A stretch of 36,870 nucleotides of DNA from a virus (lineage: Duplodnaviria > Caudoviricetes): IMG/VR virus record IMGVR_UViG_3300032277_002974, positions 1 to 36,870 of that record. One strand, given 5' to 3'. Below the pieces are notes generated by a model, which saw only the letters and a program-made list of their open reading frames with translations, searched no databases and was not told the origin of the DNA. The first letter of the stretch is position 1. Each line of letters starts with the position of its first letter. Made by a program: the position numbers and the translations under genes. Shown here one piece after another: positions 1,128-36,816 of this stretch.

Positions 1128-1144
1128 TGGTACCTGAGGCCGGA
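1128..1144 (-). mobile_element. att site: duplicated 3' end of a tRNA (Leu-like)
   Basis: Minus strand reads TCCGGCCTCAGGTACCA, a T-arm/acceptor/CCA end resembling E. coli leuX (TCCGGCCTTCGGCACCA, the P4 att); the rest of the tRNA is absent. Confidence 0.85.
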
Positions 1145-1262
1145 AACACACTGACGATGTAAGTCAGTGATAATAAAGGCTTTCACTTTCATGATTAACC
1201 ATTACTACCACAACGGCTACCCTAGACGCGCTCCCGCATCCTTATTATGGAGTCGAACCCGC

Positions 1263-2123
1263 ATGCAGTCTTCTGGTGAATCTATAAAGAACAGAATGCT
1301 TGCCTACGCTGATGCAGCTGACGAAGCAGAGCGCGACGCAGTAGAAGCAGCGCGTACATACGTCCAAGGTTGTAACGATAAGGGTGAGCCCGTACGCATC
1401 CGACCAGTGCAGCTTGATATCTGGCAAGGAACCAAACTCGCATTACCTGTGATTCTAGCCAGATGTGCTTTATTCGCCGCCAGTAAGAGAGGTAAGCGAG
1501 TTGCTGTAGATCGTAAGCAGTTAGCGAGTTGGAAGAACACCTCAATAGAATATACAGGATTCGGCCTCACTCAGAACGATCTCGACATACTCTTGGCTAT
1601 CACGCGAACTGCCGAAGATGGTATCTGCCGTACGTCTGCAAATGGTCTATTACGAGCAGCAGGCAAAGCTATCGGTGGGGCAGGGGCAACGAGACTCAAA
1701 GGCCAACTTACTTATATGACGGCATGCGCTATTAAGATTCAGACACGAGAGAAGTCTTACACAGGCAACCTGCTTAATTGGGCCTATGACGAGAATACGG
1801 GTGAACTCATTATAGCTATCAATGGCAATCTGCGCGGCCTGTATGACTCAGTGAGCTATCTCGAATCAGAATGCCGTAAGAGCTTACGGAGTGATCTCAG
1901 CAAGTGGCTTCATGGCTACATATCATCGCATACCGCCACTATCGAACACCCACATAGGATCAAGGTAAAGACATTGCACGAGCTATCAGGTTCGAGCTAT
2001 AGCGACATGCACGCCTTTATCTTCGCTCTGAAGAAGTCTCTCCAGGAGATAGGGCAATTCCTTATGGCTTGGGATATCTCGCATACAGGAGTGCTGACCG
2101 TAGCCAAGTGCCAGGCTGATTAG
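1263..2123 (+). CDS. TrfA-like plasmid replication initiator
   Basis: LPVILARCALFAA...IEYTGFGLTQNDLDIL and LSKWLHGYISSH resemble TrfA family motifs; iteron cluster immediately downstream; start placed at ATG 1263 after GGAG (ORF open from 1167). Confidence 0.8.
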   Translation: MQSSGESIKNRMLAYADAADEAERDAVEAARTYVQGCNDKGEPVRIRPVQLDIWQGTKLALPVILARCALFAASKRGKRVAVDRKQLASWKNTSIEYTGFGLTQNDLDILLAITRTAEDGICRTSANGLLRAAGKAIGGAGATRLKGQLTYMTACAIKIQTREKSYTGNLLNWAYDENTGELIIAINGNLRGLYDSVSYLESECRKSLRSDLSKWLHGYISSHTATIEHPHRIKVKTLHELSGSSYSDMHAFIFALKKSLQEIGQFLMAWDISHTGVLTVAKCQAD

Positions 2124-6829: not shown

Positions 6830-7843
6830 GTGCCTAGCAAAATTAAATGGAAAAAGGCAGTCACGCCTCTTACCGCAGATCAGGCTAAGAACTTCACCAA
6901 GGTCGCTATTAAAGCGCGGCTCGGTATCGAAGTATCAGGCTCACATAGAACAAAGGGAGATTTCCACTTCCGCGTATTCTCTCTTGATTCCGGCGATAGT
7001 ATAAAATCGGCTGTATGGAATGTAGAGCATGCTGACGGACGTACTGAGAAAGTGAGTGGACAGAAACTCAGTTCCGATAAGTACGTTCCTACAAAACTCA
7101 TTCCCGCCGACAAGCAGAGAAATAGATTACCTTATGGCAAGAAGCTCCCTAAAGCTGCTCCACCCGAGCGTTACAATACTGCGATGTCATTATCTACATT
7201 CGCTAGCCGTCTGGACCACGCTGCTAATAAGACTGTTATCTACGATGGTACAGCAGGTAGTATTAAGAAGAGGAACAACACCACTCTGATACTCTTCTCT
7301 GGTAAGGTGCCAGGCACTGCTAAAGTCACCGACACTAAGAAGCCTATGGCCTCATGGGTAACGCTCATGAATCAGCTTCCTGTTGGTTACTTAATGATAG
7401 CCGATAATTATACGAAGCTGAAGAAACATTCAGAAGTCTCGTGGACTATCAACAAGCCTACGAGTAACGAAAAGAAGGCATATAAAATCTTTACGGATGG
7501 CAACTACTTCCCGTTCGTCAGAAAAGGGTTCATTGAAGGCTATATGAAGGTAGGAAACTCTATTCCTAGTCAGAAGCGTATAGGTGCAGAGGCTTTCGTT
7601 ATCACGAAGCCATTCGTAACGAAGTACAAGGCCCTACTAAACCCTACTAAGATCGACTTTATGAACCCCTCGGCTACAGGCAGTGTGTACTCTAAGAGTT
7701 ATATGACGCTTATGAAGAAGTTCCTGACAGAGATCAAAGAGGCTACAGGAGATACGACTGCCATCACGGGCCTATCGACACTCGATGACCTCACAAAAGA
7801 GGTGATCCATGATGGAGTACCTATGTCATTCTTCGTCTCCTAA
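6830..7843 (+). CDS. Lys-rich hypothetical protein
   Basis: 337-aa ORF, AGGAG RBS, GTG start, followed by terminator. Confidence 0.75.
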   Translation: MPSKIKWKKAVTPLTADQAKNFTKVAIKARLGIEVSGSHRTKGDFHFRVFSLDSGDSIKSAVWNVEHADGRTEKVSGQKLSSDKYVPTKLIPADKQRNRLPYGKKLPKAAPPERYNTAMSLSTFASRLDHAANKTVIYDGTAGSIKKRNNTTLILFSGKVPGTAKVTDTKKPMASWVTLMNQLPVGYLMIADNYTKLKKHSEVSWTINKPTSNEKKAYKIFTDGNYFPFVRKGFIEGYMKVGNSIPSQKRIGAEAFVITKPFVTKYKALLNPTKIDFMNPSATGSVYSKSYMTLMKKFLTEIKEATGDTTAITGLSTLDDLTKEVIHDGVPMSFFVS

Positions 7844-9826: not shown

Positions 9827-10072
9827 GACGTAGCGAGTCCCGACTCCTCCCCGCAGGGAGGGAGGGCGCAGCGTAGCGTCGCTATCTTTACTCTTTATTC
9901 TTTAGTCTTTAGAGATTCTGTAAACCGTTTAATACCAACGGTCTATAGATTTAGAGGTACCCACTTTGTACTTTAGAGGTACCCACTTTGTACTTTAGAG
10001 GTACCCACTTTGTACTTTAGAGGTACCCACTTTGTATCAATTTAGATTTAGAGGTACCCACTTTGTATCAAT
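9827..10072 (+). repeat. Origin 2: GC hairpin, AT-rich tract and five 21-bp iterons
   Basis: TTTAGAGGTACCCACTTTGTA at 9950, 9972, 9994, 10016 (22-bp period) and 10047; TCTTTA x4 tract at ~9885-9911; CTCCC-cgca-GGGAG hairpin upstream; precedes Rep_3 gene. Confidence 0.9.
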
Positions 10073-10139
10073 TCCATCTAAACCGTTATATAGAACCAAA
10101 TTAGAACACAAATTCCGGCCACTTGGCCGATACCAGCTA

Positions 10140-10247: not shown

Positions 10248-11408
10248 ATGAACCAAGTAAAACCAACACAGAAGCAGAGCGCCAAGGCCTCTGAAAATAA
10301 GATCGCATTCAGCAGGGCGCTAATCTCAGCATCGTGCAGAATGACTGCGACCCAGCTTAAACTATTCATGCTGTCCCTTGCCGTTATCAATAGTAACGAG
10401 TCAATAGATGCCGCACACCGTACTATACAGTTCCAGAGTTCATCTTTTATAGATATCTTCGGAAACAATACTACATACGCCCGACTTAATGATGAGATGA
10501 GGGATATAGCTACTGCCGCCTTCGTAGTGTCCCGAGAGTTCGTGCAGGATGGTGTAGTAACTACCGACCACGTACCTGTGCCTATTTTCTCGAAAACGTC
10601 AGCCGCTGAAAACGGTGTAATTACGCTCACCTTCCGAGATGAGATTCTACACCACATCTTTTCTCTAGGTACAGATCAGCCTTACCTGCTTATGGCACTA
10701 GAAGGGATCGACCGGCTCAAGACCAAAGCAGCAATGCGCCTATATCTGGCGTTATTGGCGAGCTATAGAGAGAATGCCTTATCTAAGCGCAAGCCTCGCA
10801 TCGATCTAAAGAGCCTGCGCGCTACTCTGGACCTAACAAAGAATGCGACATACAGAGCTGTGAAGAGAAAACTAGATAGAGCTATCGCTGAGATTAATCG
10901 AACAGAAGGCGCGGACATTACCATCAACGGCTGCATTCCAGTTTCCGGCGGCAAGCCTGTTTATAAGGGTTCCAGACCAGCAGACGGTATAGAGTTCGAT
11001 GTGGACTACTCGGATCACCTTGGGAACTTCCCTGACAAGAGAATAGGCCGCGACGATAAAACAACCAAAGCTCTTGAGGATACTTTTCATGTTGCGCCTG
11101 AATCCAAGAAAAGGAAAAAGCTCGGTAAGTCCAAAGGCGAAAGAAAGTTCACCAAGACAGATACCCGCGCTGATATTCCTGTAGACGATCTTAGAGCAAA
11201 ACTGACTAACGCCGGAGACTCGGCCATACACCTGTTTGATCTGCTAGTTAAATCCAAGACGCTATCAGTGTCAGAAGAGGAGCTATTCCGCTATGACGAC
11301 ATCGAACCGCATAGCGACGCTGTGGAACTCACCGGATGCCTACGTCAACACGGCGCGTCTTTTAACAGCAGCTTGGGTAGCGTCAAGATGACGTACAAGA
11401 ACCTTTAA
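10248..11408 (+). CDS. Rep_3 (RepB-like) replication initiator
   Basis: NKIAFSRALISASCRMTATQLKLFMLSLAVI, ITLTF, LKTKAAMRLYLAL, KRKLDRAIAEIN are Rep_3 hallmarks; iterons upstream. Confidence 0.88.
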   Translation: MNQVKPTQKQSAKASENKIAFSRALISASCRMTATQLKLFMLSLAVINSNESIDAAHRTIQFQSSSFIDIFGNNTTYARLNDEMRDIATAAFVVSREFVQDGVVTTDHVPVPIFSKTSAAENGVITLTFRDEILHHIFSLGTDQPYLLMALEGIDRLKTKAAMRLYLALLASYRENALSKRKPRIDLKSLRATLDLTKNATYRAVKRKLDRAIAEINRTEGADITINGCIPVSGGKPVYKGSRPADGIEFDVDYSDHLGNFPDKRIGRDDKTTKALEDTFHVAPESKKRKKLGKSKGERKFTKTDTRADIPVDDLRAKLTNAGDSAIHLFDLLVKSKTLSVSEEELFRYDDIEPHSDAVELTGCLRQHGASFNSSLGSVKMTYKNL

Positions 11409-17356: not shown

Positions 17357-17357
17357 T

Positions 17358-17534: not shown

Positions 17535-17556
17535 GCACCACAGCACGCATCGTAGA

Positions 17557-17590: not shown

Positions 17591-17651
17591 TAAGGTACGC
17601 CGTGTACCACCATCTGAGGTCCTATTACTATCAACCGGAAAGGAGATCGAA

Positions 17652-17810: not shown

Positions 17811-17928
17811 ATAACCATCTACTAGAACTAAACCAAACGCCCACTAGAGCAGCTTAAATCATATAGGCGAGTGGTAGTACGGAATACATATAAAGGCTGC
17901 TTAGAACAGCCAGAGAGGAGGGGTCGAA

Positions 17929-18408
17929 ATGAACACAGACAAACTACAACTCGAAATCACTGTCACCGGTATAGAAGAAGTGGACGTATTCATATCCGTA
18001 GAGCTTGATGGCGACTCCCTTGATCTTATCGGCTGTAGCTGGGTAACACCCGTAAAAGACCACGGTAAAGTGTTCTGTAAACAGTGTCGTGAGAGTGGTA
18101 GTGAAGAATCTTTCGATACGTACGAAGCTCTGTACCTACACCATTTCGAATGCACTATGAAAGCTATCGAATACGTAATGAACGCAGAAGCTCTATGGGT
18201 GTACCGGACTGACGGCGGTTCCACTGCTGTAGATATCGACAGACTCGACCCCGCGCGCAAAGACGGTGTAGATGGTTGGTGTCTCGTACCTATCGAAAGT
18301 GTAGTAGTGGTACCACTCAGGACGGCAGAACGCAGAAGCCGTCACAAACGCGCAGTGCATAAATTACTGTCTCAGTGCTACGCAGACAACGCTCCCGCAG
18401 AAGCCTGA
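17929..18408 (+). CDS. Hypothetical protein
   Basis: 159-aa ORF with GGAGG RBS. Confidence 0.65.
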   Translation: MNTDKLQLEITVTGIEEVDVFISVELDGDSLDLIGCSWVTPVKDHGKVFCKQCRESGSEESFDTYEALYLHHFECTMKAIEYVMNAEALWVYRTDGGSTAVDIDRLDPARKDGVDGWCLVPIESVVVVPLRTAERRSRHKRAVHKLLSQCYADNAPAEA

Positions 18409-18671
18409 GATAAGACTCAGCAAAGAATAGCGACTTACGGTTGGGGTGGTTCCCGCGTGTTCCGTAAGTTGCTTGTAGATAATGAGCTTCACCTCCGTTT
18501 CTCATTATCTGCCCGAGGTAGCAGCGGCCGATAGATCGCTTTGTCTATCGGCTGCTCCTTCGATCCATTCACAATCCTGACTTTACTCTTACCAAATCTC
18601 ATAAATATATCTAACCATCATAATCAGCTGCCATGCTGAGTTTTGGTGCATCTACCCCAAGGAGAACAACT

Positions 18672-19046
18672 ATGAAGAAAACTCTAGCAGCTATTATGGC
18701 GGCAGCATTTCTGATGCTCGCTATCACACCTACAGTAAGCGCAGCACCACTTAGTAAATGCAAGGCATGCCATTCGATTACAGTAGACGGCAAAGCCAAG
18801 ATGGGTCCAAACCTGTTCGGTGTAATGGATCGCCAGCAAGGATCAGAAGAAGGCTACAAGTACGGAAGCTACCTGCAGGCGCAGAACGCAGCAGAAGCCG
18901 TATGGACTGAAGAAGCTCTACGGGATTGGATCGCAGACAGTAAAGGCGTTGCCAAAGAAGTAGGGCAGAAGACGAAGATGCCGAAACAAAAACTTACGGG
19001 TGAGAAGGCCGACGCGGTAGTAACTGCACTCCAGGCACTGAAGTAA
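18672..19046 (+). CDS. Class I cytochrome c (c2-like), periplasmic
   Basis: Signal peptide, CKACH haem motif, GPNLFGV, GYKYG, WTEEAL..WI, TKMP axial Met. Confidence 0.93.
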   Translation: MKKTLAAIMAAAFLMLAITPTVSAAPLSKCKACHSITVDGKAKMGPNLFGVMDRQQGSEEGYKYGSYLQAQNAAEAVWTEEALRDWIADSKGVAKEVGQKTKMPKQKLTGEKADAVVTALQALK

Positions 19047-19067
19047 TCAACGGTGGGCGAAGCATTG

Positions 19068-19358
19068 ATGAAGGACGACGCTCTACCACCACCACATACC
19101 ATTCCACCATCTGAAGAATTTAAGAACTATACCGGATTCGAACTCGGCGGCCTGACAGTACTTTACTACGCTGGCCGCGCAACGAAGTACGCCTTGTGGG
19201 TTGTCTCTTACGACAACCACGAGTTTCTAACAACAACGCGCAAACTCAACCAAGTGAAGAACCATCTGAAGAATCGGACCGAGTTATCTCAGGCTGATTA
19301 CGAGGATATCTTTTTCCACAAGAGCTTCGCGCATAGATCAGCTTCTAAGCAGGCATAG
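19068..19358 (+). CDS. Stand-alone homing-endonuclease N-terminal-like domain protein
   Basis: LPPPHTIPPSEEFKNYTGFELGGLTVLYYAGR aligns by eye with LPPERCEIPSHSSFNDLTGMTFDRWKVLYYIGR of ORF 29705-30496; start uncertain (19053 or 19068). Confidence 0.5.
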   Translation: MKDDALPPPHTIPPSEEFKNYTGFELGGLTVLYYAGRATKYALWVVSYDNHEFLTTTRKLNQVKNHLKNRTELSQADYEDIFFHKSFAHRSASKQA

Positions 19359-19506
19359 CCTGATATCTAAGTACTTACTCGCACCAAGTACTCAAAACAG
19401 CCCTAGAGCCTGTTTGAACTGACCAAACAAACCTAACCAACGAACATAATCGAGCAGATACCAGCGTATTCATTTACGAGAGCTATCTGCGCCCAGGAGT
19501 TACACC

Positions 19507-19716
19507 ATGAATCAGCCTAAGACGCTACATACGCTTACTGAGATCAACGAAGCCATCGAGAACGGAGAGAGCAAAGTCATCACCGTACACAGTGCAGCAG
19601 AGCTTCAAATGACAGAAGCCGTAGCCGAAGAGTTATTCACCAAGGTATTCGAGAACAATATGCAAATCCATTTCGTCGTAGAAGACACACGCATCGGTGA
19701 TCTAAATGCTGCGTAA
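19507..19716 (+). CDS. Hypothetical protein, first gene of the tail-module operon
   Basis: 69-aa ORF, AGGAG RBS, overlaps next gene. Confidence 0.65.
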   Translation: MNQPKTLHTLTEINEAIENGESKVITVHSAAELQMTEAVAEELFTKVFENNMQIHFVVEDTRIGDLNAA

Positions 19717-20029
19717 ACTAATCGAACGCTACAGAGCGAAATCCCTACGCAAGAAGATTAAGCGAGCGTTGACACAAGGAATCCCAGATACCGACTGTGT
19801 TGTAATCAACCTACAGAAACCGGAGCAGGCTCTACTACTATCCGAAGCCGATCACCTTGTATTCGCAGTACCGATCAAAGGGCTACAGAGCCTAGACGTA
19901 ACCAGCAGGAAGCAGTGCGCGCATGTAGTAGAACTACTAGGCGCGGGATACGGAACATCACCACTAGCCACGTACCTGCTGATACTGGATAACATGCTCT
20001 ACCGTTCGCTAAGAAGCGACCATGTTTGA
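19706..20029 (+). CDS. Hypothetical protein
   Basis: 107-aa ORF overlapping both neighbours. Confidence 0.6.
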   Translation: MLRKLIERYRAKSLRKKIKRALTQGIPDTDCVVINLQKPEQALLLSEADHLVFAVPIKGLQSLDVTSRKQCAHVVELLGAGYGTSPLATYLLILDNMLYRSLRSDHV

Positions 20030-20843
20030 TACCCGAAACCCAGCCCAATGGAAGCGAGCCAATCCGCTACCGTCAAACGGCATGCTATACGAGACAGATG
20101 TGCTGTACCGTGGCTATACGCTAGGTGAGCTATTGGTAGTAGGAACATCCGATCTGTCCATCCAGCAGAAAGTAGAAATTATGGCCCAAGGCATGATTCG
20201 GAATGACGGCAAAGATGTTTATGATTTAACCTTCTACGACTTCGCCTATGTCGGCCTACTCAGAAAGCTCGGAACGCTCGGCGACATGGCTACCTACACA
20301 ATGGCACTCGAATGCGATGTATGCCGTGAGAAAATGACCCGATCCCTTCGAGGCGACCACTTCGCCTTTTCCGATCTTGAGACAAAGTTTCCTTTCAAAG
20401 AGAAACTAGGCTCTACAACAACGACAGTCTCGCCAATCACGGTACGGAGGTACTTGGACATACTGCCTGAGACTGACTTCCATATCTTAGCAGCATCTAT
20501 GGGCATGTCCTTTGAGCAATTACTCACATCAGAGCACATCACAGAGATCGCGCATATCGAGCAACTGCTATGTCATACGCTGGAGCCAATCGACTTCAAA
20601 TGCGACTACTGCGGCAACAAGCGCAGCGTCGCTCTAGAGCTACTAAGCAATAGGCCAGAATGCTCTCTAGTTCTCCCCGAATTGAATCAGGCCGCCGCTA
20701 AGAGTTTATCAGAATCGCTATACGGTATGTCTAAGCATTTCAGCACTACACCTAATGAATTCTACCCCATGCAATTCAGCGACTACAGGAACATGGAACG
20801 ATTAGCTGCTAAGGCTCTCGAAGCATCTAGGCAGAAGAAATAA
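20022..20843 (+). CDS. Baseplate-hub assembly protein (T4 gp26/gp51-like)
   Basis: LPSNGMLY...YRGYTLGE motif, D..YV.L.R, two CxxC pairs (CDVC, CDYC), position before tube and tape-measure genes. Confidence 0.65.
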   Translation: MFDTRNPAQWKRANPLPSNGMLYETDVLYRGYTLGELLVVGTSDLSIQQKVEIMAQGMIRNDGKDVYDLTFYDFAYVGLLRKLGTLGDMATYTMALECDVCREKMTRSLRGDHFAFSDLETKFPFKEKLGSTTTTVSPITVRRYLDILPETDFHILAASMGMSFEQLLTSEHITEIAHIEQLLCHTLEPIDFKCDYCGNKRSVALELLSNRPECSLVLPELNQAAAKSLSESLYGMSKHFSTTPNEFYPMQFSDYRNMERLAAKALEASRQKK

Positions 20844-20871
20844 TCATAACCAAATATACAGGAGGCTATAC

Positions 20872-21369
20872 ATGCCACCCTTACTAAAAAGCGGCGTATT
20901 CCAATCTATGACAACTGTAGAATGGGGTTCAACGACAAACTGGGAAGTCTCTTTCCCGAGCGATCCAATGGCTGCGCCATTCAGGGAATACATTCCCGCT
21001 CAAACGATAAACACACCACACGGTAGCGTTACTGAGCAAGAGATCAGCTTTGGTAATAAGACAGCGCAGATTCCTCTAGGCACAAGCGCAGAGCAAATCT
21101 CAGTCACCTTCCTAGATAATGACGAGGATGTAGTACTCAATTACTTCTCCGAATGGATGGCCTACTTGACCGATGGCGGCACAGCGACAGAAACAGAAGC
21201 TGCCCGACTAATGGTATACACCAGAGCCAACAACTCGCTTACATCCTCAAATGATTATGCGGTCCGCGTTTACCCTATGGGAGAACTAACTTCTGAGATG
21301 GGCGAAACCGCAGGCGTACGTCAGGTATCAGTAACATTCAGAGTCGTTTCTATGGGTGATCCTCAATGA
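20872..21369 (+). CDS. Tail-tube-fold protein (gp19/gp54-like tube initiator)
   Basis: NWEVSF, QISVTFLDNDEDVVLNYFSEWM, VYP.G, QVSVTF; paralogous pattern to 24152-24670. Confidence 0.68.
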   Translation: MPPLLKSGVFQSMTTVEWGSTTNWEVSFPSDPMAAPFREYIPAQTINTPHGSVTEQEISFGNKTAQIPLGTSAEQISVTFLDNDEDVVLNYFSEWMAYLTDGGTATETEAARLMVYTRANNSLTSSNDYAVRVYPMGELTSEMGETAGVRQVSVTFRVVSMGDPQ

Positions 21370-21399
21370 ATAAATTTATAATAGAAAGGAGGCCGAGTA

Positions 21400-23433
21400 A
21401 TGGCTAAGCACTTACCATTTTCAGACGCCGTAGCTAAAGACAGGAACGGCGAAGGCCCCAAGAGTAGCTCCCTGAAAGATATGGAGCTGGAGAAGAACAG
21501 GCGCAGCTTCTTGCAGATGGCTGGATCGTTCCAACTCTCTACCAGTGCGCTCACAGACAGCATCGACTTCCTCTCTGAGAACGCTACAACAGACGATCAG
21601 AAAGAAGCGGTTGCCGTTATTGAGAAAGGCGCATTCAATCCGATAATCAAAGCTGTACGCGATAGAGAAAAGGTTACAAGCGAGCAGATGGCCACAACGC
21701 TTAATGATATTAAATTAGTATCAAGAGAGCTGCTTCAGGACTCGCAAACAGTAACCGTATCTACCGATAGATTTATGAGCGAACTCATAGGCCAGGCTAC
21801 GGACGAGACGAACAGCACTAGCGACAGAGTGCAGTACATCAAAGCTGTAAGCGATTTTGCTACTCAGTATGCTGACTTCAGTTCCTCTCAGACTAATGAA
21901 CTTGCGCCTCTTATGGAGTCAGTGCAGCTCGGAAACTCATTAACAGACGAACAGATATCTACACTGACTGAGTTTTCAGACAGCGTTCAATCACAGATCG
22001 GAGATACTAAGCTGAGTACTACTATCGGCGAGATTAACGGAACGCTGGCAAGCGTAGACTTCTCTGGTGACAGTAACATTAGAACGCTACAAGAAGGCAA
22101 CCTGGAAGAAACGCTAGTCCGGTTTGCTGAAAGCATATCCGTAGGCTCTGCTACTGCCGCCCAGGAACTCAATTCCAATATCGGTACTGCTCTAGGAATC
22201 AACGGTCCCGTAGGCGACATGCTCGGCGAAGGTATAACTAATCTCGGCGGTAAGATGGTCAGCGGATTAGGCTCTATGATTGCTGATAGTACCATAGGCC
22301 AAATAGCAGCAGACGAGATCGCAGCTATTAAGAAAAGGCGCGCAGACAAGAAAGCATTGAAGCGCGTACGTCGCCGTGAGATCAAACAAGCACGTTACGA
22401 GAAATGGCGTGAGCGTTTCGATACAGCATTAGGGCGTAAAAACGCCAAGCTCATCGATAAGGATGCTAAGGCCAGAGATGTCAAAAAGAACAAGGTAGAC
22501 GCTAGGCGCCATAAGGCCCTTACTGGTGCTATCGGAGAATCCAACAACTGGCTGATTCGTATATTCGCTATTCAGGCGATTATGGCCGTTCTGGGTAAGG
22601 CGTGGACCGCAGCCATATCAGCCATCGCCGCAGCTGCCTCTGCTGTTGGGCTAGGTGGTAAAGGTGGAGCCGCAGCTACAGGTAAACCAAGTAAGCTAGG
22701 CAAGGTTGCTAAATTCGGTGGTGGTGTACTCGCCGCTGGTCTCGCTGGGTACGATAAACAGCAAGAGCTGAAAGACAGAGAAGACCTTACGGGCGCTCAA
22801 AAGACCACACAGGTCGCAACTACTGCTATAGGTGCAGGCGGCGGAGCGGTAGCGGGAGCTATGGCAGGCGCTGCTATCGGATCTATTATCCCAGGCATCG
22901 GAACTGTTATCGGCGGTATCATTGGTGGGGCATTAGGCGCATGGGCTGGTTCAGAAGCAGGCGAAGCTACGGGCGAGTTAATATCCAAAGCACTACCGGA
23001 TAAAAACAGCACTTCGGTTACTCAGGATACCGTGGCTAAGTATATGGAGCTTGTTCAATCAGGCATGCCTAAAGCTGAAGCTATGCAGGCTTCTGGTATC
23101 TCACAGGCTAACGCTAGGAAGGCTGACTCCGGCGCAAGTGCAGAAGCTATCGTTGCCAGTAATCAGGTGGCGGCTATCGGCTTTAAATCTCAAAGCTTTA
23201 AACCCCAAGCTACTAAGACTGCGTTGGACAGCTCCGCTACTAAGAAAGTAACGGAACTGCGTAAGGAAGAAGCTATCCTGAGCAGAGCCGCTATGAAGGC
23301 TTCCGGTAAAGAACCGAATATCACAGTGCAACCAACACCAGTGGTAGTTCAGCCAGCACCAGCAATGCCTACTCCGAGAACCACATCTATCAACGATACG
23401 GGTCTATCAATCCTACAGAAGGGCTACGGATAA
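21400..23433 (+). CDS. Tape measure protein
   Basis: 677 aa, helical Ala/Ser-rich, two hydrophobic Gly-zipper stretches (GAVAGAMAGAAIGSIIPGIGTVIGGIIGGALG), Pro-rich C-terminus; flanked by tube genes. Confidence 0.78.
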   Translation: MAKHLPFSDAVAKDRNGEGPKSSSLKDMELEKNRRSFLQMAGSFQLSTSALTDSIDFLSENATTDDQKEAVAVIEKGAFNPIIKAVRDREKVTSEQMATTLNDIKLVSRELLQDSQTVTVSTDRFMSELIGQATDETNSTSDRVQYIKAVSDFATQYADFSSSQTNELAPLMESVQLGNSLTDEQISTLTEFSDSVQSQIGDTKLSTTIGEINGTLASVDFSGDSNIRTLQEGNLEETLVRFAESISVGSATAAQELNSNIGTALGINGPVGDMLGEGITNLGGKMVSGLGSMIADSTIGQIAADEIAAIKKRRADKKALKRVRRREIKQARYEKWRERFDTALGRKNAKLIDKDAKARDVKKNKVDARRHKALTGAIGESNNWLIRIFAIQAIMAVLGKAWTAAISAIAAAASAVGLGGKGGAAATGKPSKLGKVAKFGGGVLAAGLAGYDKQQELKDREDLTGAQKTTQVATTAIGAGGGAVAGAMAGAAIGSIIPGIGTVIGGIIGGALGAWAGSEAGEATGELISKALPDKNSTSVTQDTVAKYMELVQSGMPKAEAMQASGISQANARKADSGASAEAIVASNQVAAIGFKSQSFKPQATKTALDSSATKKVTELRKEEAILSRAAMKASGKEPNITVQPTPVVVQPAPAMPTPRTTSINDTGLSILQKGYG

Positions 23434-23470
23434 TGGCCTGTAAACTAATTAGAAAACCAACGAGGATATT

Positions 23471-24127
23471 ATGGCTATCGAAGCAGTAAGCATAAGACAA
23501 ACCGAAGAAGAAAATCTGGTCAGGATATATCAGTCGGGCACTGATAACTTCGTATCCGGCACACTTATGGAGGACATAACGCTCGGCGTTCAAGCTAACT
23601 GGTCTTCTGGCTCTGCTGTGACAGATGTAATCGACGGTGTAGGTAACCTAGCTCGCACTTTAGGTGGCGCTAACTACGACTCTATGAAGTCATTTGTGAA
23701 TAGCACGCGTGTTAATCAACCCGCAGCAGCACGCTGGGCTTCTACCTATCAATGGGCTGGTACAGATAGACCGACATTCAACGTGTCCATCGGCGCCTTC
23801 TGTCTAAAGGACACCGATGATGTCAGGGCGCAGCTCGCCCCTTTATTCGACTACACGCTTCCTCAGGTCATTGGCGGCGATGGCGGCGTTATCATACCAC
23901 CTCTCGGGTATAGGACGTCACTCAACGGCGCACAGGTCGAAGGAGTCTTGAGACTAGGAATCGGCCAGTGGTTCAGTGCTGGGGGACTTGTATGTTCAGG
24001 CGTCCAGACAGTATTCAGCAAAGTACTCAATAAGAAAGGTAAGCCCTTATTCGGGATCGCGAACGTCACCCTGCAACCAGCACAGGAGATATCTGCTGAT
24101 ACGTTCCGGCAGTACCTACGCCAATGA
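23471..24127 (+). CDS. Baseplate/tail-tube cap protein (gp48-like)
   Basis: QWAGTDRPTFNV, LRLGIGQWF, LVCSGVQTVFS, GKPLFGIANVTLQP; directly after tape measure. Confidence 0.58.
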   Translation: MAIEAVSIRQTEEENLVRIYQSGTDNFVSGTLMEDITLGVQANWSSGSAVTDVIDGVGNLARTLGGANYDSMKSFVNSTRVNQPAAARWASTYQWAGTDRPTFNVSIGAFCLKDTDDVRAQLAPLFDYTLPQVIGGDGGVIIPPLGYRTSLNGAQVEGVLRLGIGQWFSAGGLVCSGVQTVFSKVLNKKGKPLFGIANVTLQPAQEISADTFRQYLRQ

Positions 24128-24151
24128 TTTTAATTCAAACAGGAGGGCATA

Positions 24152-24670
24152 ATGCCTAGACCTACACCAGATCAAATTAGAGGCAGCGGTGATACGCTCA
24201 CCACATATAGGTGGGATGTCGCTTTCATGGATGGCGAGCTTATCGGGCTAGATTCCAATAATGTAAATTACAGGTGCAAGACTACGACATTGCCTAATAC
24301 GGATGTTGAGTTTGTCCCGGTGACGCTTAACGGCCATGCCTATCAACAGCCATCAACAGCCGATAGATCGGGCGAGATAGAGATGACATTCTACGAGAAC
24401 GATAGCGCCGCACTATTAGCTATCTTCAATACGTGGCTTGAGCTTACATTCAATCCGAAGACAGGAGCCCGTCTTACCAATTCAGATTTAAGGGTAGGAT
24501 GCCTAATTCGACTTCTGAATGGACAAGACGAGCGCGTTGCCGAGTACACACTATCGAACGTCTTTCTGAAGACGCTCTCCAACCCAGACTTGGGAAGCGA
24601 CAACGAAGCGTTCGAGATTACAATCACGCTGGTTTATTCTGGATACACTTACGACAGTACATCCAGCTAA
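24152..24670 (+). CDS. Tail tube protein (T4 gp19-like family)
   Basis: YRWDVAF, RCKTTTLP, GEIEMTFYE, FNTW, RLLNGQD..VAEYTLSNVF, EITITLVY. Confidence 0.82.
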   Translation: MPRPTPDQIRGSGDTLTTYRWDVAFMDGELIGLDSNNVNYRCKTTTLPNTDVEFVPVTLNGHAYQQPSTADRSGEIEMTFYENDSAALLAIFNTWLELTFNPKTGARLTNSDLRVGCLIRLLNGQDERVAEYTLSNVFLKTLSNPDLGSDNEAFEITITLVYSGYTYDSTSS

Positions 24671-24680
24671 CGATAACAAT

Positions 24681-24717
24681 AGCCCCATCATCTCTAATCG
24701 AGATGGTGGGGCTTTTT
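24681..24717 (+). terminator. Rho-independent terminator closing the tail operon
   Basis: AGCCCCATCATCTC-taatc-GAGATGGTGGGGCT-TTTT. Confidence 0.88.
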
Positions 24718-24886
24718 GTGTATATTCTCGCTGAGCTAAGAAACAGACGTATTGCATCTAGGTGCTACTATAGCCAGCGTACTGAAAACAGCTCTACGTG
24801 GATTCTATAGAGGCCATTTTAGACAGTACGGCACGAACGCTAGCGAATACTCCGACAACTCTACGATCTCTATAGATCCTCGTTGA

Positions 24887-24950
24887 TGTGAGTCCTTGGA
24901 CAGCGGCATAATGATATCATAGTATCACCTTATCGAGACGAAGGGAGACA
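24887..24950 (+). promoter_or_regulatory. Repeated sigma70-like promoter/operator, type B copy 1
   Basis: TGGACA-N17-TAGTAT with TGATATCA palindrome in the spacer. Confidence 0.8.
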
Positions 24951-24954
24951 CACA

Positions 24955-25566
24955 ATGGCACAGGAATTAAACGCGGTAGACGAGTCAAAATCCATTCGGA
25001 AATTTACGCCTCGTCAGGTACGCCTCGCAGAAGTCTATTTTCCTATCCTTGTCAGTCTCGCCAAGCACAAGCATGAGCTTACCTATAAAGAGCTGATCCT
25101 AAGAGCCCGTGACGAGAACCCAGGCGTACCTGAGCTTGAGACGGAGAACCCGCGCAATGTTGGTGGTACTCTCTACGTCATTCACGAGGTATGCCGCCAG
25201 AACGATCTACCTTCACTCAACGCTTTAATCATAAACAAGAGTACAGGCAAATGCGGCGCAGGTATTGTTAAGTGCGACGGTATCAACTCGCAGTCAGACG
25301 TAGAAGCCCAACGTGACGGCACATACGATACAGATTGGAGCGACGTTCTGGTTCAGTTCGATAGCCTGATCAAGCTCGAAGCAAGGAAAGCCGCTCCGGT
25401 TAAGCGACTGACGAAGAAGGAGGCACTAGACCTCTTCTCTGGCTACGCACTTACCAACAAAGCTACTCTGGACGTAGAGGCCGTGAAGTCTTCTCGTGAG
25501 TCGATCATTACGGATCTAATGGACGGCGCACACGCAGTAGACGTATTCGCAGAGTTCGCCAAATGA
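24955..25566 (+). CDS. Hypothetical protein with probable winged-helix domain
   Basis: LTYKEL...VGGTLYVI...C....LPSLNALIINKSTG..G.G pattern. Confidence 0.7.
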   Translation: MAQELNAVDESKSIRKFTPRQVRLAEVYFPILVSLAKHKHELTYKELILRARDENPGVPELETENPRNVGGTLYVIHEVCRQNDLPSLNALIINKSTGKCGAGIVKCDGINSQSDVEAQRDGTYDTDWSDVLVQFDSLIKLEARKAAPVKRLTKKEALDLFSGYALTNKATLDVEAVKSSRESIITDLMDGAHAVDVFAEFAK

Positions 25567-25635
25567 GCATTCACGCTATCTTGCCATCATGTATTAATGA
25601 TATCATTATTGCACTCTCACTCCAGGAGGCCACCA

Positions 25636-25800
25636 ATGGCAGATAAGAAAGAAGAGATAGTGAGCTTTGTAGTACGACTGCCGGCCAGCCTTGTGTTCGC
25701 TATGGACTCCGAAAGGCTCCATACGAAGGTTAGCCGGAACAAACAAGTACGCGACCTGATCGAAGCGAAGTACCCCGACGGCACATATAAGCCTGAGTAA
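25636..25800 (+). CDS. Ribbon-helix-helix regulator
   Basis: VSFVVRLPASL...SRNKQVRDLIE; own promoter TTGCCA-N17-CATTAT overlaps TGATATCA. Confidence 0.68.
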   Translation: MADKKEEIVSFVVRLPASLVFAMDSERLHTKVSRNKQVRDLIEAKYPDGTYKPE

Positions 25801-25837
25801 TCCTGGCAACCCGAACGTATCCCTTTAGTATCAGTAT

Positions 25838-26350
25838 ATGACCGCATTCACTAAGATTATCGAAGCTAAGAGGGCGCTACAGTCAGCAGTAGGCGACTTT
25901 CTAATTGATATCGATGATAGCCTACTATGTGAGCATAGCTTCAGTCTCTCGGCCCTAGAAGCCATTGAGATCAAGGCCGATAAGAGCAAGTCATACATAT
26001 ACGTATTCTCAACTAAAGAAGCCTCACAGATCAAAGAAGCTTGTCGTAAAATGAAGGCTTCCCAAACCAAGATCAAGCTCCCGCTTATCTCCAAAGCGAC
26101 TACACCAAGCGACTGTCTTTATGTAGGCAGCAGCACGACAGGAATCACCAAACGGATTAAAGAGCATCTGGGCTTCGGCCATGATTCGACATACTCGCTA
26201 CAGCTTAATAAATGGGCTGGTGGGATCGACGCGCAGATCATTCTAAAGGTCTATGAGTTCAGCGGCATAGAGCAGAGCATAGTACAGTTAATCGAAGACG
26301 GCCTTCACGAGAAACTTAGCCCAACCCTTGGCAAACGCGGTAGTAAATAA
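25838..26350 (+). CDS. GIY-YIG nuclease family protein
   Basis: YIYVF...CLYVGSS...KRIKEH, LIEDGL, P.LGK.G. Confidence 0.7.
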   Translation: MTAFTKIIEAKRALQSAVGDFLIDIDDSLLCEHSFSLSALEAIEIKADKSKSYIYVFSTKEASQIKEACRKMKASQTKIKLPLISKATTPSDCLYVGSSTTGITKRIKEHLGFGHDSTYSLQLNKWAGGIDAQIILKVYEFSGIEQSIVQLIEDGLHEKLSPTLGKRGSK

Positions 26351-26421
26351 GCTCGCTGTGAATCTCTGGCAACACCACATAAACCCTTTTATAATCAACA
26401 TTAAGGAGCAAACGGCAGAGG

Positions 26422-26488
26422 ACAACAAGGCGGTAGAACCGACTAGCATAATAGCTTCTCTGTAATCAGAGAGTGTTTACACCAAAGC
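26422..26488 (+). repeat. Long inverted repeat, left copy
   Basis: ACAACAAGGCGGTAGAACCGACTAGC (26 bp) plus AGCTTCTCTGTAATCA (16 bp) match the reverse complement of 29302-29347. Confidence 0.9.
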
Positions 26489-26745
26489 CACGCAGCACAA
26501 CACAGCAGCAAACCCGCACACGCCCACTCTTCTATTATCAGAACCGAATCTACTCCAGACTGTACCTAGCGACGCTGCGCCCTCCTATGTTATCAATATT
26601 AAAAGGAATCATGCTATCAAGCCAGCATGAATACATGCTCAATATTCTGTACAGTAATAGGCTCTCAAGTAGAATAAACAGAGGTTAATCAATCGCCCAA
26701 TACTCGATAGACGATACCGCAATGGACAGAATTAGGGGCAAGATC

Positions 26746-27495
26746 GTGAGTGATAAGACATACTTCATAGCATACTACCGAGTCTCTACCGATAGGCAGG
26801 GAGCAACTGGCCTTGGTATCGAAGCTCAAAGAGAAGCTGTACAGGCGTATGCTAAGACGATACCAAACGCGGAAGTCATAGAACACTTCACTGAGGTCGA
26901 GTCGGGCAAGTCAAATGACCGTCCTGAACTCGCCAAGGCAATCTACGAATGTGAACTCACCGGACATACTCTACTTATCGCCAAGCTGGATCGTCTCAGC
27001 CGTGATAGTCGATTCCTGGCAAACCTGCTCGCCGACGATCTCAACTTTGTATGCTGCGATATGCCGAAGGCCGATAAGGTCATGGTCGGCATAATGTCGT
27101 ACATCGCAGAGTGGGAACGAGAGCAGATTGGCAGGCGTACAAAATCCGCTCTGGCCGCACTGAAGAAACGATACGAAGAGGCAGAAGAAGGCAGCGAGCA
27201 TTATGGCAAGCGTCTGGGTAATCCGAACGGAGCAGAGCCGCTTATACGATCCGGTAAAGGGAACACAGGAGCCGTAGCCGCTATCAAGCAGAACGCCGAC
27301 GACTTCGCTGCTCATAAGATAAAGCTCATCGACAGTATTAAGGAGAACGGCATCACCACTTATAAGGGAATTGCCCGAGAGCTTAACCGCCGCAAGATCA
27401 GGACACCCAGGAATGGAGTATGGCATCCTTCGAGCGTCAGCAAGCTTATGAAACGAATACAGCGCGTAAGCGGTCCAATTCAGGCTAGGTGCTAG
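26746..27495 (+). CDS. Serine recombinase (resolvase/invertase family)
   Basis: YYRVSTDRQ, E.ESGK, RPEL, AKLDRLSR, AEWEREQIGRRTK, LGNP, C-terminal ARELN...TPRNGVWH; GTG start (ORF open from 26722). Confidence 0.95.
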   Translation: MSDKTYFIAYYRVSTDRQGATGLGIEAQREAVQAYAKTIPNAEVIEHFTEVESGKSNDRPELAKAIYECELTGHTLLIAKLDRLSRDSRFLANLLADDLNFVCCDMPKADKVMVGIMSYIAEWEREQIGRRTKSALAALKKRYEEAEEGSEHYGKRLGNPNGAEPLIRSGKGNTGAVAAIKQNADDFAAHKIKLIDSIKENGITTYKGIARELNRRKIRTPRNGVWHPSSVSKLMKRIQRVSGPIQARC

Positions 27496-31701: not shown

Positions 31702-32352
31702 ATGGAAATACTAGCGGCAGTTCAATCGAAGGGCGGCGTAGGCAAAAGCACATTGGTAATCTCGCTGGCCGCAGCGTTTAGAACCCAACTCAATAAGCGT
31801 GTAGCTATTATCGACTGCGACCCAATCGGAGCCGCTCAGTGCTGGCATAGCCAAGTACTACAGCTAGATGATTCTCCACTTGCCGGAATCGACTTGTACA
31901 CGGTAACGACTCCGAGAGAATTGAACGAGATTAAGAGCATGCAGGATGACTACGACATAGTGATCCTCGATACGGCAGGCCACGATAACGCTACGGCAAA
32001 GAAAGCCATTGAGGTAAGCGACCATATACTGCTCCCATGCCGAGCAGGTGTATTCGATATAAAAGCGAGTAAGCACACCACGGATATGATCTCAGAATGC
32101 GGCAAGCTCGATAAGGTTCTAATGATCCTGACTATGACGATCCATAGAGCAGGTCTGACAGCAGATGCACGCGAAGCTATCGGGCAGCTATACCCAGAGA
32201 TCCGCTTGCTAGAAGCAGAGATGAGAACGTATGCCGGATACTCGAATACGCTGGCTAACGGTCAGACGGTATTAGACTGCAACTCATTAGCCGCACGGTC
32301 TAACTTCACCCAGATATTCAACGAAATCAGAAGCACGATAGCAGGGGCATAA
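31702..32352 (+). CDS. parA: ParA-family partition ATPase (short, type Ib)
   Basis: Deviant Walker A KGGVGKST, IDCDP, YDIVILDTAG, 216 aa. Confidence 0.93.
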   Translation: MEILAAVQSKGGVGKSTLVISLAAAFRTQLNKRVAIIDCDPIGAAQCWHSQVLQLDDSPLAGIDLYTVTTPRELNEIKSMQDDYDIVILDTAGHDNATAKKAIEVSDHILLPCRAGVFDIKASKHTTDMISECGKLDKVLMILTMTIHRAGLTADAREAIGQLYPEIRLLEAEMRTYAGYSNTLANGQTVLDCNSLAARSNFTQIFNEIRSTIAGA

Positions 32353-34891: not shown

Positions 34892-34932
34892 GGTGGGTAT
34901 GGCTCCAATCCGAGCTTTACCCACCATCCTTT
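34892..34932. terminator. Hairpin between convergent genes
   Basis: GGTGGGTAtGGCTC/GAGCTtTACCCACC. Confidence 0.5.
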
Positions 34933-35582
34933 TACTTCTTATCTCCAGGCTGAAGGTTGTTCAGGTAGGCTTTTAACTCAGCGCAGCTATAGACGGTTGT
35001 ACGAGGACCAAGCTTAACCGGAGTAAGTGGAATCTCTCCCGATTTGATCTTGGCATACAATCCGCTCTTACTTATAGAGATAAAGCGCAAAACGTCCGAT
35101 ATCCTGTAATAACCTTCATTCGGTATCGAAGCGGCTCTTTTTCGGTCACGTAGAATCGCCGTAGAGCTGTTTTTACCCTCTTCGGCTAGTGCTACTATCT
35201 CTTCAGTATTACAATTATTCGTTGGTACGCTTACGTCAGCGACTTCAGGTGTACTCGTGATAAGAAAGGCAGGCGTTTCGATATCCAGCGTATTGCACAA
35301 CGATCTAAGCTGTTTTGCGGTTACTGTATCGTTACCGGACGCGCCGAGCAGATCAATGCTCTTTCTCATGCTTTCGTATTCGCCGTACGTGTCGTCTACA
35401 TCATCTGGGTCTATCAGATCGAATACGGCTACAGGTGGCTTGACCGCCTTTCCGTTATAGCGGCCAAGAAGATAGTCGGCGAAGTCATCAAGCTCGTACA
35501 TACCAACCATAAAGATAGCGGCTTGGTGTACGTTGAAGCTCTTGCGCTTCTGTAGAATCTTGATTGCTGTATCAGTCTTCAT
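34932..35582 (-). CDS. AlpA-family regulator/excisionase with long N-terminal extension
   Basis: C-terminal YYRISDVLRFISISKSGLYAKIKSGEIP.TPVKLGPRTTVY is AlpA-like; overlaps integrase stop. Confidence 0.8.
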   Translation of the reverse strand: MKTDTAIKILQKRKSFNVHQAAIFMVGMYELDDFADYLLGRYNGKAVKPPVAVFDLIDPDDVDDTYGEYESMRKSIDLLGASGNDTVTAKQLRSLCNTLDIETPAFLITSTPEVADVSVPTNNCNTEEIVALAEEGKNSSTAILRDRKRAASIPNEGYYRISDVLRFISISKSGLYAKIKSGEIPLTPVKLGPRTTVYSCAELKAYLNNLQPGDKK

Positions 35583-36816
35583 CGTATTTGTAGTCCTTGC
35601 GCTTCGGTAGTTCTGTATCGGCTCGCAGAGCATCTATCAGGTCACTATACCATTGGAGTAGGGCGGTTCTAGCAGGTAAGTGCATTGCTCTGTTATAGAT
35701 GCCGCGAGTACCTGAGATAGCATGAGCAAGTTGTAGCTCTACGGCATCAGAAGGCCATCCTGCTTCGTGCGAGATCGTACTGAAGGTTGTTCTGAATCCA
35801 TGAGGTACAACTATGTCGCTGGAGTAGCCCAGACGAGCAAGACAGGCATTAGCTGTACCGTCCGAAGTAGGGCGTTTCCAAGTGCGAGAGGATGGGAAGC
35901 AATACGTCTGTTCTCCTACTCCGGTAAGTAGTCGAAGCTCCTTGAAATACCCCTCTACCTGTCTCGACATTGGTATGAGCAAATCTTTTCGCATCTTCGT
36001 ATGTTCGGCAGGTACTACGATCATGTGAGCTTTCCAATCGAACCAACTCCATTCCATTATTCGAAGCTCTCCAGGCCGCAGAGCTAGGTGAGGCATGATC
36101 TTCATAAGCTGCTGCACAGGATACGTAGCTGCGAGTGTATCAATCGCCCGTATCAACTGACCGAATTGCGTTGGATTGGTGATAGCTGCGCGGTTCTCTA
36201 CTTTCAGTTGTGTGATAGCTCCTTTCAGAGCGTAGGTGACGTCAGTCTCCGCTCTTTCTGTAGCTACGGCATACCGCGCAATCCGACTGATAATAGACTT
36301 TATACGGTGTGCTGTTTCTATATGGCCTGCGCTCTCTGATACCCTCATTACAGCGAGTACTTCAGATGCTTTTAGATCCGCGAAAGGTATGTGTCCTATG
36401 TGGGGTAGAATTAGCTTATCAAGTTTGCGCTTTGTCTCGTTCAGTGTGCGCTTTGATACCTGCTGCTTGTCGAGCCATTCTGTAGCTACAGCCAGAACAG
36501 TATTACCCGTATCAGTTGCGGCGTTAAGCCTATGGCGTTTTCTTGCTACTGACGGATTTACACCTTGGTCAAGTAGCTCTCTGGCCGCATCGCGTAGCTC
36601 TCTGGCTTCTTTCAGAGTTGTCTTAGGGTAGGTACCGAGTGATAGGGTTTTCTGCTTCGAGTCGAAGGAGTAAGCAAACCGCCATCCCTTACTGATCTTT
36701 CCTGTTCTGGCAGAGCGTTCTACCAGTAGAGATAAACCCAGACTGTCATACAGCTTCTTGCGGTTCTTATCCTTCGATAGGGATGCGTTTTGAGCTTTAA
36801 GGTTTGTTAACGCCAT
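35572..36816 (-). CDS. P4-type tyrosine integrase
   Basis: MALTNLK, KLYDSLGLSL, KQKTLSLGTYP..TLKEAR (arm-binding domain), LRPGEL, K, HGFR, QLAH, YNR. Confidence 0.96.
   Translation of the reverse strand: MALTNLKAQNASLSKDKNRKKLYDSLGLSLLVERSARTGKISKGWRFAYSFDSKQKTLSLGTYPKTTLKEARELRDAARELLDQGVNPSVARKRHRLNAATDTGNTVLAVATEWLDKQQVSKRTLNETKRKLDKLILPHIGHIPFADLKASEVLAVMRVSESAGHIETAHRIKSIISRIARYAVATERAETDVTYALKGAITQLKVENRAAITNPTQFGQLIRAIDTLAATYPVQQLMKIMPHLALRPGELRIMEWSWFDWKAHMIVVPAEHTKMRKDLLIPMSRQVEGYFKELRLLTGVGEQTYCFPSSRTWKRPTSDGTANACLARLGYSSDIVVPHGFRTTFSTISHEAGWPSDAVELQLAHAISGTRGIYNRAMHLPARTALLQWYSDLIDALRADTELPKRKDYKYDED

Follow-up and report, generated by a model that had tools for sequence, protein, structure and literature searches.

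The window analysed here, the whole 36,870-nt IMG/VR provirus record IMGVR_UViG_3300032277_002974, holds an integrated element without head genes that encodes the inner part of a contractile phage tail: a tail assembly chaperone, two predicted starter rings, a tape measure (or ruler) and a tail tube. These five genes are intact one-to-one orthologues (18-33% identity) of the block lying between the sheath and gp53 genes in a group of 110-280-kb myophages, termed the donor group below. They appear to constitute a whole inner tail core, because in the structures of P1 and T4 their counterparts either line the tube or initiate it. Our best explanation, held with about even confidence, is that the element is a phage satellite resembling the PLE elements, which builds hybrid tails by mounting a core of its own on the baseplate of a helper phage. 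The exact correspondence of the five genes to the sheath-to-gp53 block of cultured phages speaks for this explanation.

The inner tail core and its large-myophage orthologues

All five open reading frames (ORFs) are uninterrupted on the + strand (Table 1), as stated in a preliminary description of this DNA. Four of them have a clear ribosome-binding site (RBS) of their own, and their GC3 of 0.46-0.55 is like that of the rest of the element. The same description spoke of a terminator-bounded operon of five tail genes. The five genes and the 3' terminator were recovered; none was found on the 5' side, and the operon starts with two small ORFs of 69 and 107 amino acids (aa) that show no significant family match in PHROGs, Pfam, NCBIfam or PADLOC. 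A copy of an intergenic motif that might act as a promoter or operator lies just upstream of the operon.

The 273-aa protein belongs to the T4 gp26/gp51 family on the basis of ESM Atlas features (0.94, PF12322), structure matches with TM scores of 0.69-0.78 and a match to a hidden Markov model (HMM) of the phage orthologues at E 7e-26, with retention of the four zinc cysteines. It had been taken for a hub protein; the family assignment holds, and gp26 and gp51 of T4 are described as hub-assembly chaperones (PMC3004832), not as structural parts of the hub. The three tube-fold proteins and the 677-aa tape measure of the preliminary description were likewise recovered by PHROG, HMM and structure matches. 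Of the tube-fold proteins, the 172-aa version is the tail tube (PHROG tail tube, E 1.6e-20), with alignment matches to P1 BplB and T4 gp19. The 165-aa protein (PHROG tail tube, E 8.9e-9; orthologue HMM, E 7e-20) is the orthologue of the gene that follows the tube gene in the donor phages, and its gene position, its fold class and the description of the P1 baseplate suggest that it forms a gp54-like ring. The 218-aa protein is PmgG-like (PHROG match, E 2e-7); its AlphaFold model (pLDDT 85.6) has a chain of the P1 baseplate as its top Foldseek match (E 1.3e-8), and it is predicted to sit as a ring on the hub of the helper. The label "head morphogenesis" given to PmgG in PHROGs was rejected, as both the P1 structure and Foldseek identify PmgG as a baseplate ring. 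In the P1 tail the tube is described as standing on two rings, one of Tub and one of PmgG, PmgG being the homologue of T4 gp48 (bioRxiv 2025.07.21.665459), and in T4 gp48 and gp54 are reported to form the platform for tube growth, with gp29 as the ruler (PMC3004832).

The tape measure matches the corresponding PHROG at E 1.6e-13 and an HMM derived from two phage tape measures at E 1.2e-11. Its C-terminus carries the conserved motif of 20 phage rulers and scores best among 418 C-termini, and it contains a hydrophobic segment at residues 479-518, as do four of eight phage rulers. A tblastn search with it against 50,697 phage records returned nothing at E 1e-3. No lytic domain was detected in it, a weak "endolysin" PHROG match falling on its glycine-rich part.

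The closest cultured matches of the tube are large myophages of 110-265 kb (41 of the 50,697 phage records, at 20-28% identity), as are those of the PmgG-like protein (18 records) and the chaperone (20 records), which supports a group of large myophages as the donor. Members of the donor group infect Acinetobacter (Ab1-TPeters), Escherichia (EP_H11), Vibrio (GR7B, Va2), Cobetia (Carin-5), Yersinia (GN1/YerA41) and Pseudomonas (Peetri). Their gene order (sheath, tube, gp54-like ring, chaperone, tape measure, PmgG-like ring, then baseplate genes) was observed in Ab1-TPeters, GR7B, EP_H11, Carin-5, Va2 and GN1, as well as on a 128-kb Pseudoalteromonas replicon. A Rhizobium phage locus deviates in having other genes after the tube, and the Peetri locus displays the block only from the second tube-fold gene onward. 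The Pseudoalteromonas replicon (NZ_CP072685.1), deposited as a plasmid, carries the donor group's tail module in full and is probably a phage-plasmid.

In the element the order is chaperone, gp54-like ring, tape measure, PmgG-like ring and tube, as against tube, gp54-like ring, chaperone, tape measure and PmgG-like ring in the donors, a difference that takes at least two moves; no gene is broken, and the gene lengths agree with those of the orthologues. Both the changed gene order and the boundaries speak against a simple deletion remnant. Among 43 distinct IMG/VR contigs obtained from four alignment scans, many of them near-duplicates, the sheath gene directly precedes the tube gene in 42, the remaining one being cut by the contig end; none has the gene order of the window or shares another gene with it. 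Because the sheath adjoins the tube so regularly, a random remnant would be expected to have kept it.

The branch of the element in a tree of 21 rows (L008, L141, L142 and L146, each missing a gene, were excluded) measures 1.44 substitutions per site, with the reading frames still open. The tree places the element with Carin-5 and GN1 at a support of 0.897; given the long branches, this was not accepted as naming the donor. Conserved columns of the phage orthologues are largely kept in the chaperone (17 of 19), the gp54-like protein (9 of 11) and the PmgG-like protein (10 of 11). Taken together, the intact reordered genes, the RBS, the island-like GC3 and, except in the tube, the conserved columns favour maintenance of the operon.

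The reported absence of capsid, portal, terminase, sheath, wedge, fibre and lysis genes was upheld by two approaches. Comparison of 54 ORFs with PHROGs, Pfam and NCBIfam uncovered none of these, nor any spike gene. A set of 33 HMMs built from ten donor-group loci, among them those for capsid, portal, protease, terminase, neck, sheath, gp53, hub, spike, gp25 and wedge proteins, gave matches in 418 six-frame stretches to the five genes of the cassette alone; two further matches at E 0.03-0.06 were dismissed as noise. A gp27-like hub is also absent from the element, as are, around the five genes, the conserved head, neck, sheath and baseplate genes that would mark a prophage or phage-plasmid. Thirteen frames reach 250 codons and all are assigned except ORFs of 337 and 264 aa, and the gaps between genes contain no frame of more than 93 codons. 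As donor capsid proteins are about 470-490 aa long and donor sheath proteins 520-1035 aa, neither fits the unassigned frames. Thus, as is general for satellites, a full virion gene set is absent, with one ORF of more than 300 aa left without assignment. This ORF (337 aa) found no family in scans of the PHROGs, Pfam and NCBIfam type and no usable ESM Atlas match, and its single-sequence fold reached a pLDDT of only 32.

A chaperone without the frameshift site of its orthologues

In the donor phages the chaperone gene carries a CCN-UUU-C motif in frame, 16-39 codons ahead of the stop codon, together with a conserved open +1 frame. The motif is present in 11 of 14 donor loci (Carin-5 and GN1 lack it, Va2 has a variant), in 23 of 23 loci whose gene end is complete and in 13 of 13 loci of a further set, these sets overlapping. 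This combination would correspond to the G/G-T arrangement of tail chaperones. The motif in its longer form, CCN-UUU-CG, with the open conserved +1 frame points to a probable programmed +1 frameshift across the donor myophage group (L001-L010, L121-L168), including Ab1-TPeters, GR7B, EP_H11, Peetri and relatives from IMG/VR; the five GenBank phage loci annotate only the short chaperone product. In lambda, the T part is reported to bind the tube protein and a G:G-T ratio of 30:1 to matter (PMC5009743, PMC3296357).

The chaperone gene of the element has neither the +1 shift motif of the donors nor a short-form ending, and its own reading frame runs through a further 54 residues with a likeness to the T frame (T part at residues about 221-268). 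Against an ungapped T profile this tail ranks first among 284 frames, a score matched by 1 of 5000 and 3 of 1000 shuffles; its T-profile score is 1.5 as against 19-60 for the phage members, and hhalign gives E 0.006 with a probability of 6%. The T part was not detected by a HMMER local search, obtained an E of 3.0 in pairwise BLASTP and has no support from Pfam or PHROGs. On balance, it is fairly probable that the protein carries the tube-recruiting T part in frame. Encoding of a long form in a single frame is not novel as such; the unusual point is that the element would then possess a long-form chaperone with no short partner.

Boundaries, host and other genes of the element

The window lies within a 39,816-nt metagenome contig (L011), with which it shares its start base. 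A Logan contig of run X1 shows no difference from the window over positions 16871-36870, an agreement that excludes only a slip of the assembler, as the source reads are probably the same. The preliminary description placed an integrated element between an att site and the integrase. The element is indeed integrated, with a 17-nt att core at 1128-1144. Two of five Zetaproteobacteria genomes (both Mariprofundus) have the identical sequence as the 3' end of tRNA-Leu(CAA), and a third differs by one mismatch. The Fic gene was rejected as a member, since it lies outside the att core where contig depth is three-fold higher. The repeats at 2145-2331 were rejected as an att site, being iteron-like. 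In run X1 the contig forks at position 1144 into either the element or a 10-nt loose end equal to the tRNA T-arm, which is the junction of an empty site. Filled and empty integration sites therefore coexist in this run. Contig depth there, which does not equal the share of cells, is 44.9 across positions 1-1144 and 14-15 across the element. On the other side, that of the integrase gene, the Logan contig extends 170 nt beyond the window and then breaks. In three of five related Zetaproteobacteria integrase loci a tRNA-Leu gene lies about 210-220 nt upstream of the integrase, so that an intact tRNA is predicted about 200 nt upstream of the integrase of the element, just outside the window. Rfam and ARAGORN scans of the window itself gave no match. 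Given the position of the att core and the break of the contig where related loci have the tRNA-Leu, the element is about 35.9 kb long and nearly all of it is in view. The features of site-specific integration and excision seen in satellites are thus present: an integrase, an AlpA-type protein, an att core, and filled and empty junctions in one run.

Two independent pointers, both from sequence comparison, indicate that the host is probably a Zetaproteobacterium, likely an iron-oxidising marine bacterium. The cytochrome c gene has DNA matches in Zetaproteobacteria genomes, and the best genome matches of a homologue of its product (P0156, 57% identical) are all Mariprofundaceae/Zetaproteobacteria; it is a host-type periplasmic cytochrome c2 carried as cargo. 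The second is an 89-nt antisense piece at 5210-5297, about 80% identical to the 3' end of the host gene preceding rplI (in the operon rpsR, DUF2232-like gene, rplI, dnaB). This broken gene piece sits in a 1.4-kb non-coding stretch and might be a recombination scar or an antisense RNA.

Table 1. Coordinates of the tail operon and of other features in the window
Feature	Position	Strand	Evidence or remark
att core, duplicated tRNA-Leu(CAA) 3' end; left element boundary	1128..1144	-	tRNA match and contig branch
TrfA-like replication protein (weak)	1167..2123	+	Pfam TrfA E 0.015, under cut-off
Iteron-like repeats after TrfA-like gene	~2145-2331		repeat search
337-aa basic ORF, sole ORF >300 aa without family	6830..7843	+	54 K+R vs 28 D+E
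22-nt iterons upstream of Rep3 initiator	9928..10073	+	direct-repeat families D2, D3
Rep3/RepM-type plasmid replication initiator	10248..11408	+	Pfam Rep3_N E 1.8e-18
Cytochrome c, Zetaproteobacteria-type family, cargo	18675..19046	+	Pfam Cytochrom_C
Intergenic motif, possible promoter/operator	19343..19398	+	family D4, copies at 5389, 8434, 19343
69-aa acidic ORF, first gene of operon	19507..19716	+	strong RBS
107-aa ORF overlapping both neighbours	19706..20029	+	
gp26/gp51-like tail assembly chaperone, 273 aa	20022..20843	+	
Tube-fold protein, predicted first starter ring (P1 Tub / T4 gp54 equivalent), 165 aa	20872..21369	+	
Tape measure protein, 677 aa	21400..23433	+	two hydrophobic segments, conserved C-terminal motif
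PmgG-like tube-fold ring (T4 gp48 equivalent), 218 aa	23471..24127	+	
Tail tube protein (gp19/BplB fold), 172 aa	24152..24670	+	
Intrinsic terminator ending operon	24681..24713	+	-28.6 kcal/mol
Small serine recombinase	26722..27495	+	Pfam Resolvase E 1.6e-25
ParA-family ATPase, followed by 70-aa probable partner	31702..32352	+	NCBIfam ParA E 1.6e-37
AlpA-type excisionase/regulator domain protein	34932..35633	-	Pfam Phage_AlpA E 2.6e-4, at cut-off
P4-type tyrosine integrase	35572..36813	-	library scans

Beyond the tail operon, the element has two replicons, one of the Rep3/RepM type and a weakly supported TrfA-like one. Seven genes of the HNH or GIY-YIG homing-endonuclease type are present in 36 kb (at 6126, 7955, 8835, 13497, 25838, 27953 and 29705), the zinc-finger part of the one at 6126 being reminiscent, by appearance, of PLE CapR. 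An 88-nt AT-rich repeat occurs three times at 5561-6009, with spacings of 172 and 189 nt, unrelated spacers and no Rfam match; the set is origin-like or might be a small-RNA array. Promoter-RBS modules of 45-73 nt with a GATATC core form two families (24887, 25597, 27588, 33270 and 33934; 3322, 3901 and 15862) and precede small genes that are not related to one another, which suggests that these form a cassette-like set under common regulation. Identical (100%) 26-nt inverted repeats at 26422-26488 and 29282-29347 flank a 2.9-kb segment that holds the serine recombinase gene, and a 23-nt motif is found three times (24758, 27485 and 35151), with one copy directly after that gene; these could delimit an invertible segment or represent res sites.

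Relationship to known satellites and weighing of explanations

The PLE elements reside in Vibrio cholerae, have ICP1 as their helper and possess a RepA_N initiator and a serine integrase as core genes. Our element has a Rep3 initiator and a tyrosine integrase instead, and these core genes set it apart from the PLEs. It further differs in its size of 36 kb, the location of its P4-type integrase at tRNA-Leu, the Rep3 and TrfA-like replicons, ParA, the likely Zetaproteobacteria host and another donor lineage; ICP1 was not among the matches of the tube, the PmgG-like protein or the chaperone. The likeness to PLEs as described (PMC12987554) lies in an integrated, head-less element with a tape measure and a tail assembly chaperone of its own, low identity to the phage counterparts, a large myophage as likely helper, and genes of the homing-endonuclease type. 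PLE11 is reported to swap the tape measure, the tail assembly chaperone and the hub BhuB, and to take the tube from ICP1, whereas the present element has its own tube and both starter rings and no gp27-like hub (PMC12987554). Putative satellites of E. coli also combine a tRNA-adjacent tyrosine integrase with their own tape measure and a partial tail set, and differ in having capsid proteins, RepA_N and one baseplate part, with no tube mentioned in the portion of the account consulted (PMC10448857). In the literature searched, with supplements outside its scope and subscription journals sparsely covered, these were the two satellite groups with tail genes, and none with its own tail tube was found, in line with the novelty claimed in the preliminary description. 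A title-level search found no report on Zetaproteobacteria satellites, and a marine satellite survey, as far as consulted, treats tail genes as helper functions (PMC9618062).

P4-like satellites are defined by Psu, Sid, delta and the alpha primase-helicase, and the phage-inducible chromosomal islands, or PICIs, including the capsid-forming PICIs (cf-PICIs), by a primase-replicase, a small terminase and a capsid module. The element is like these families in its P4-type integrase, AlpA, tRNA site and inferred dependence on a helper, and unlike them in being two to three times their size and in having tail genes, which those families borrow. None of the four P4 genes was found among the 54 ORFs by PHROGs, Pfam or NCBIfam, and neither these ORFs nor the HMM scans contained a PICI primase-replicase, small terminase or capsid module, with a diverged small terminase possible among the short ORFs. 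The sheath, wedge, spike and hub genes that would accompany the tube in an R-type tailocin or an extracellular contractile injection system (eCIS) were not found with the libraries or the donor-group HMMs. From the donor module itself the element differs in gene order, in the absence of sheath, gp53, hub, spike, wedge, neck and head genes, and in the missing +1 shift site, whereas the orthologous tube, gp54-like ring, chaperone, tape measure and PmgG-like ring are shared with Ab1-TPeters, EP_H11, GR7B, Va2, Carin-5, GN1/YerA41 and Peetri. The tube, gp54-like and PmgG-like proteins also parallel the BplB-Tub-PmgG "spearhead" described in P1 (bioRxiv 2025.07.21.665459).

If the element is a tail-building satellite, infection by a 110-280-kb myophage of the donor group would cause it to excise, replicate from its plasmid-type origins and express the tail operon. 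The PmgG/gp48-like and gp54-like rings with the tape measure would dock on the hub and wedges of the helper, the chaperone of the element, probably in the long G-T form only, would load its own tube subunits round its own ruler, and the helper would provide the sheath, terminator, fibres, head and packaging motor. Satellite tails could thus be insulated from weapons aimed at the tube or ruler of the helper, and the baseplates of the helper would be drained, an effect that PLE11 achieves with fewer parts (ruler, chaperone and hub). PLE chimeric tails, as reported, set a precedent for such assembly (PMC12987554), and exchange of homing endonucleases between PLE and helper has been described (PMC10448857). 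More tentatively, and short of an even judgement, we suggest that the satellite would be the first to build the entire DNA-conducting core of a contractile tail (starter rings, ruler and tube) and to borrow only the outer machine, and that its long-form chaperone both diverts baseplates and upsets the chaperone ratio of the helper.

Several observations weigh against a tail-building satellite. Neither a small terminase (a diverged one among the short ORFs being possible) nor a packaging site or capsid-size gene was identified, so that packaging is unexplained, and a 36-kb genome in a head made for 110-280 kb would need concatemers or a capsid-size factor. On its own, a chaperone fixed in the long form would build tails poorly, because lambda requires an excess of the short form of about 30-fold (PMC5009743, PMC3296357); the short form of the helper would therefore have to coat a foreign ruler. 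The tube keeps 13 of 21 conserved columns, below all 23 phage tubes (15-21), and scores 115 bits, under all phage tubes (125-248), a divergence that fits poisoning of foreign tails or relaxed selection equally well. The five-gene cassette was also looked for in other integrase-bounded islands, following the preliminary description, and no second copy emerged from 133 Zetaproteobacteria genomes, two overlapping samples of 401 Pseudomonadota genomes, IMG/VR and GTDB as scanned with patterns, or 72,556 plasmids, among which only one phage-like plasmid was found. The best of 285 matches in a full HMMER scan (P0003, on a 12.7-kb Logan contig) is 39% identical, and no closer helper came to light. 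Word-index protein searches with the PmgG-like protein and the tube returned only the proteins of the window, single-protein pattern scans found nothing in IMG/VR (tube, integrase, 337-aa ORF) or GTDB (tube), one metagenome pattern scan recovered only the source contig, and alignment scans gave ordinary phages only. With this single copy, a family of such elements is conjectural.

The strongest rival explanation, which we rate as somewhat unlikely, is a tail-poisoning defence in which decoy cores would occupy the baseplates, tube or ruler of an infecting myophage, so that tail-less particles result, whether or not the island spreads by other means. The unusually diverged tube, the want of any packaging gene and the chaperone without shift site agree with it, as an increase in gpGT is reported to lower the yield of lambda (PMC3296357). 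Blocking of tail assembly is moreover a known defence of satellites and prophages, represented by Tai (PMC11364771) and Rta (PMC12987554), which are likewise mobile-element genes aimed at the tail pathway. On the other hand, a full-length ruler with a docking motif, both starter rings and a tube, 5 kb in all, look like an assembly pathway, and PADLOC (2023 library) had no match among 34 ORFs. To our knowledge, the tail inhibitors known are single small proteins. Rta, as reported, is one gene (PMC12987554), as against the five-gene structural set of the element. Poisoning and swapping of the tail core can also both hold, as in PLE11.

A functionless piece of a large temperate myophage or phage-plasmid, left over or hitch-hiking in an ordinary island that captured it, appears improbable. 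The 128-kb Pseudoalteromonas plasmid with the whole module shows that there are temperate donors possessing plasmid replicons, decay in its early stages may account for the diverged tube and the lost shift site, and the island also holds the broken 89-nt host gene piece. However, six frames contain no trace of flanking structural genes, the genes are reordered yet intact with their own RBS and terminator, their composition is that of the rest of the island, and five frames have stayed open after deep divergence. Even less probable is a split system, in which a second resident element of the same host, or the DNA just beyond the integrase, supplies the head, sheath and baseplate genes and the parts together form a particle or tailocin-like device. 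Room for such genes would exist in the host chromosome and in the last 2,946 nt of L011, which lie outside the DNA analysed. However, the contig ends in a break 170 nt beyond the window, at the place predicted for the tRNA, and the 133 Zetaproteobacteria genomes lack a PmgG-like gene and have two weak eCIS-type tube matches only. These two tube genes occur in separate genomes, in one (L100) with a sheath and in the other (L099) apparently alone. It would be very surprising if the core now served as a tube without sheath in a role unconnected with phages. In principle a hollow tube of set length needs no more than the tube, rings and ruler, and the tube is diverged; nevertheless, the T4 tube is reported to need an assembled baseplate as its nucleus (PMC3004832), and no terminator, hub or membrane anchor gene was detected.

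On the whole, the element is a real, well-bounded and apparently intact singleton with the largest inner-tail set found, and a satellite building hybrid tails remains our best explanation for it. With some reserve, we would regard such a satellite as the mirror image of the capsid-forming PICIs and as the first Zetaproteobacteria satellite candidate in the searches made. Remodelling of tails by satellites has, in the literature consulted, been demonstrated for one family only, in which the tube is borrowed (PMC12987554). If the present explanation is true, the tube and ruler core would be a module in its own right, able to be combined with a baseplate and sheath of foreign origin at a sequence identity of about 25%. 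This has a bearing on how far contractile tails tolerate exchanged parts and on the reasons for which satellites devote genes to tails. The likely helper class would be the 110-280-kb myophages, for a host group with barely described phages, and the element would offer a natural example, open to testing, of frameshift loss in a tail chaperone.

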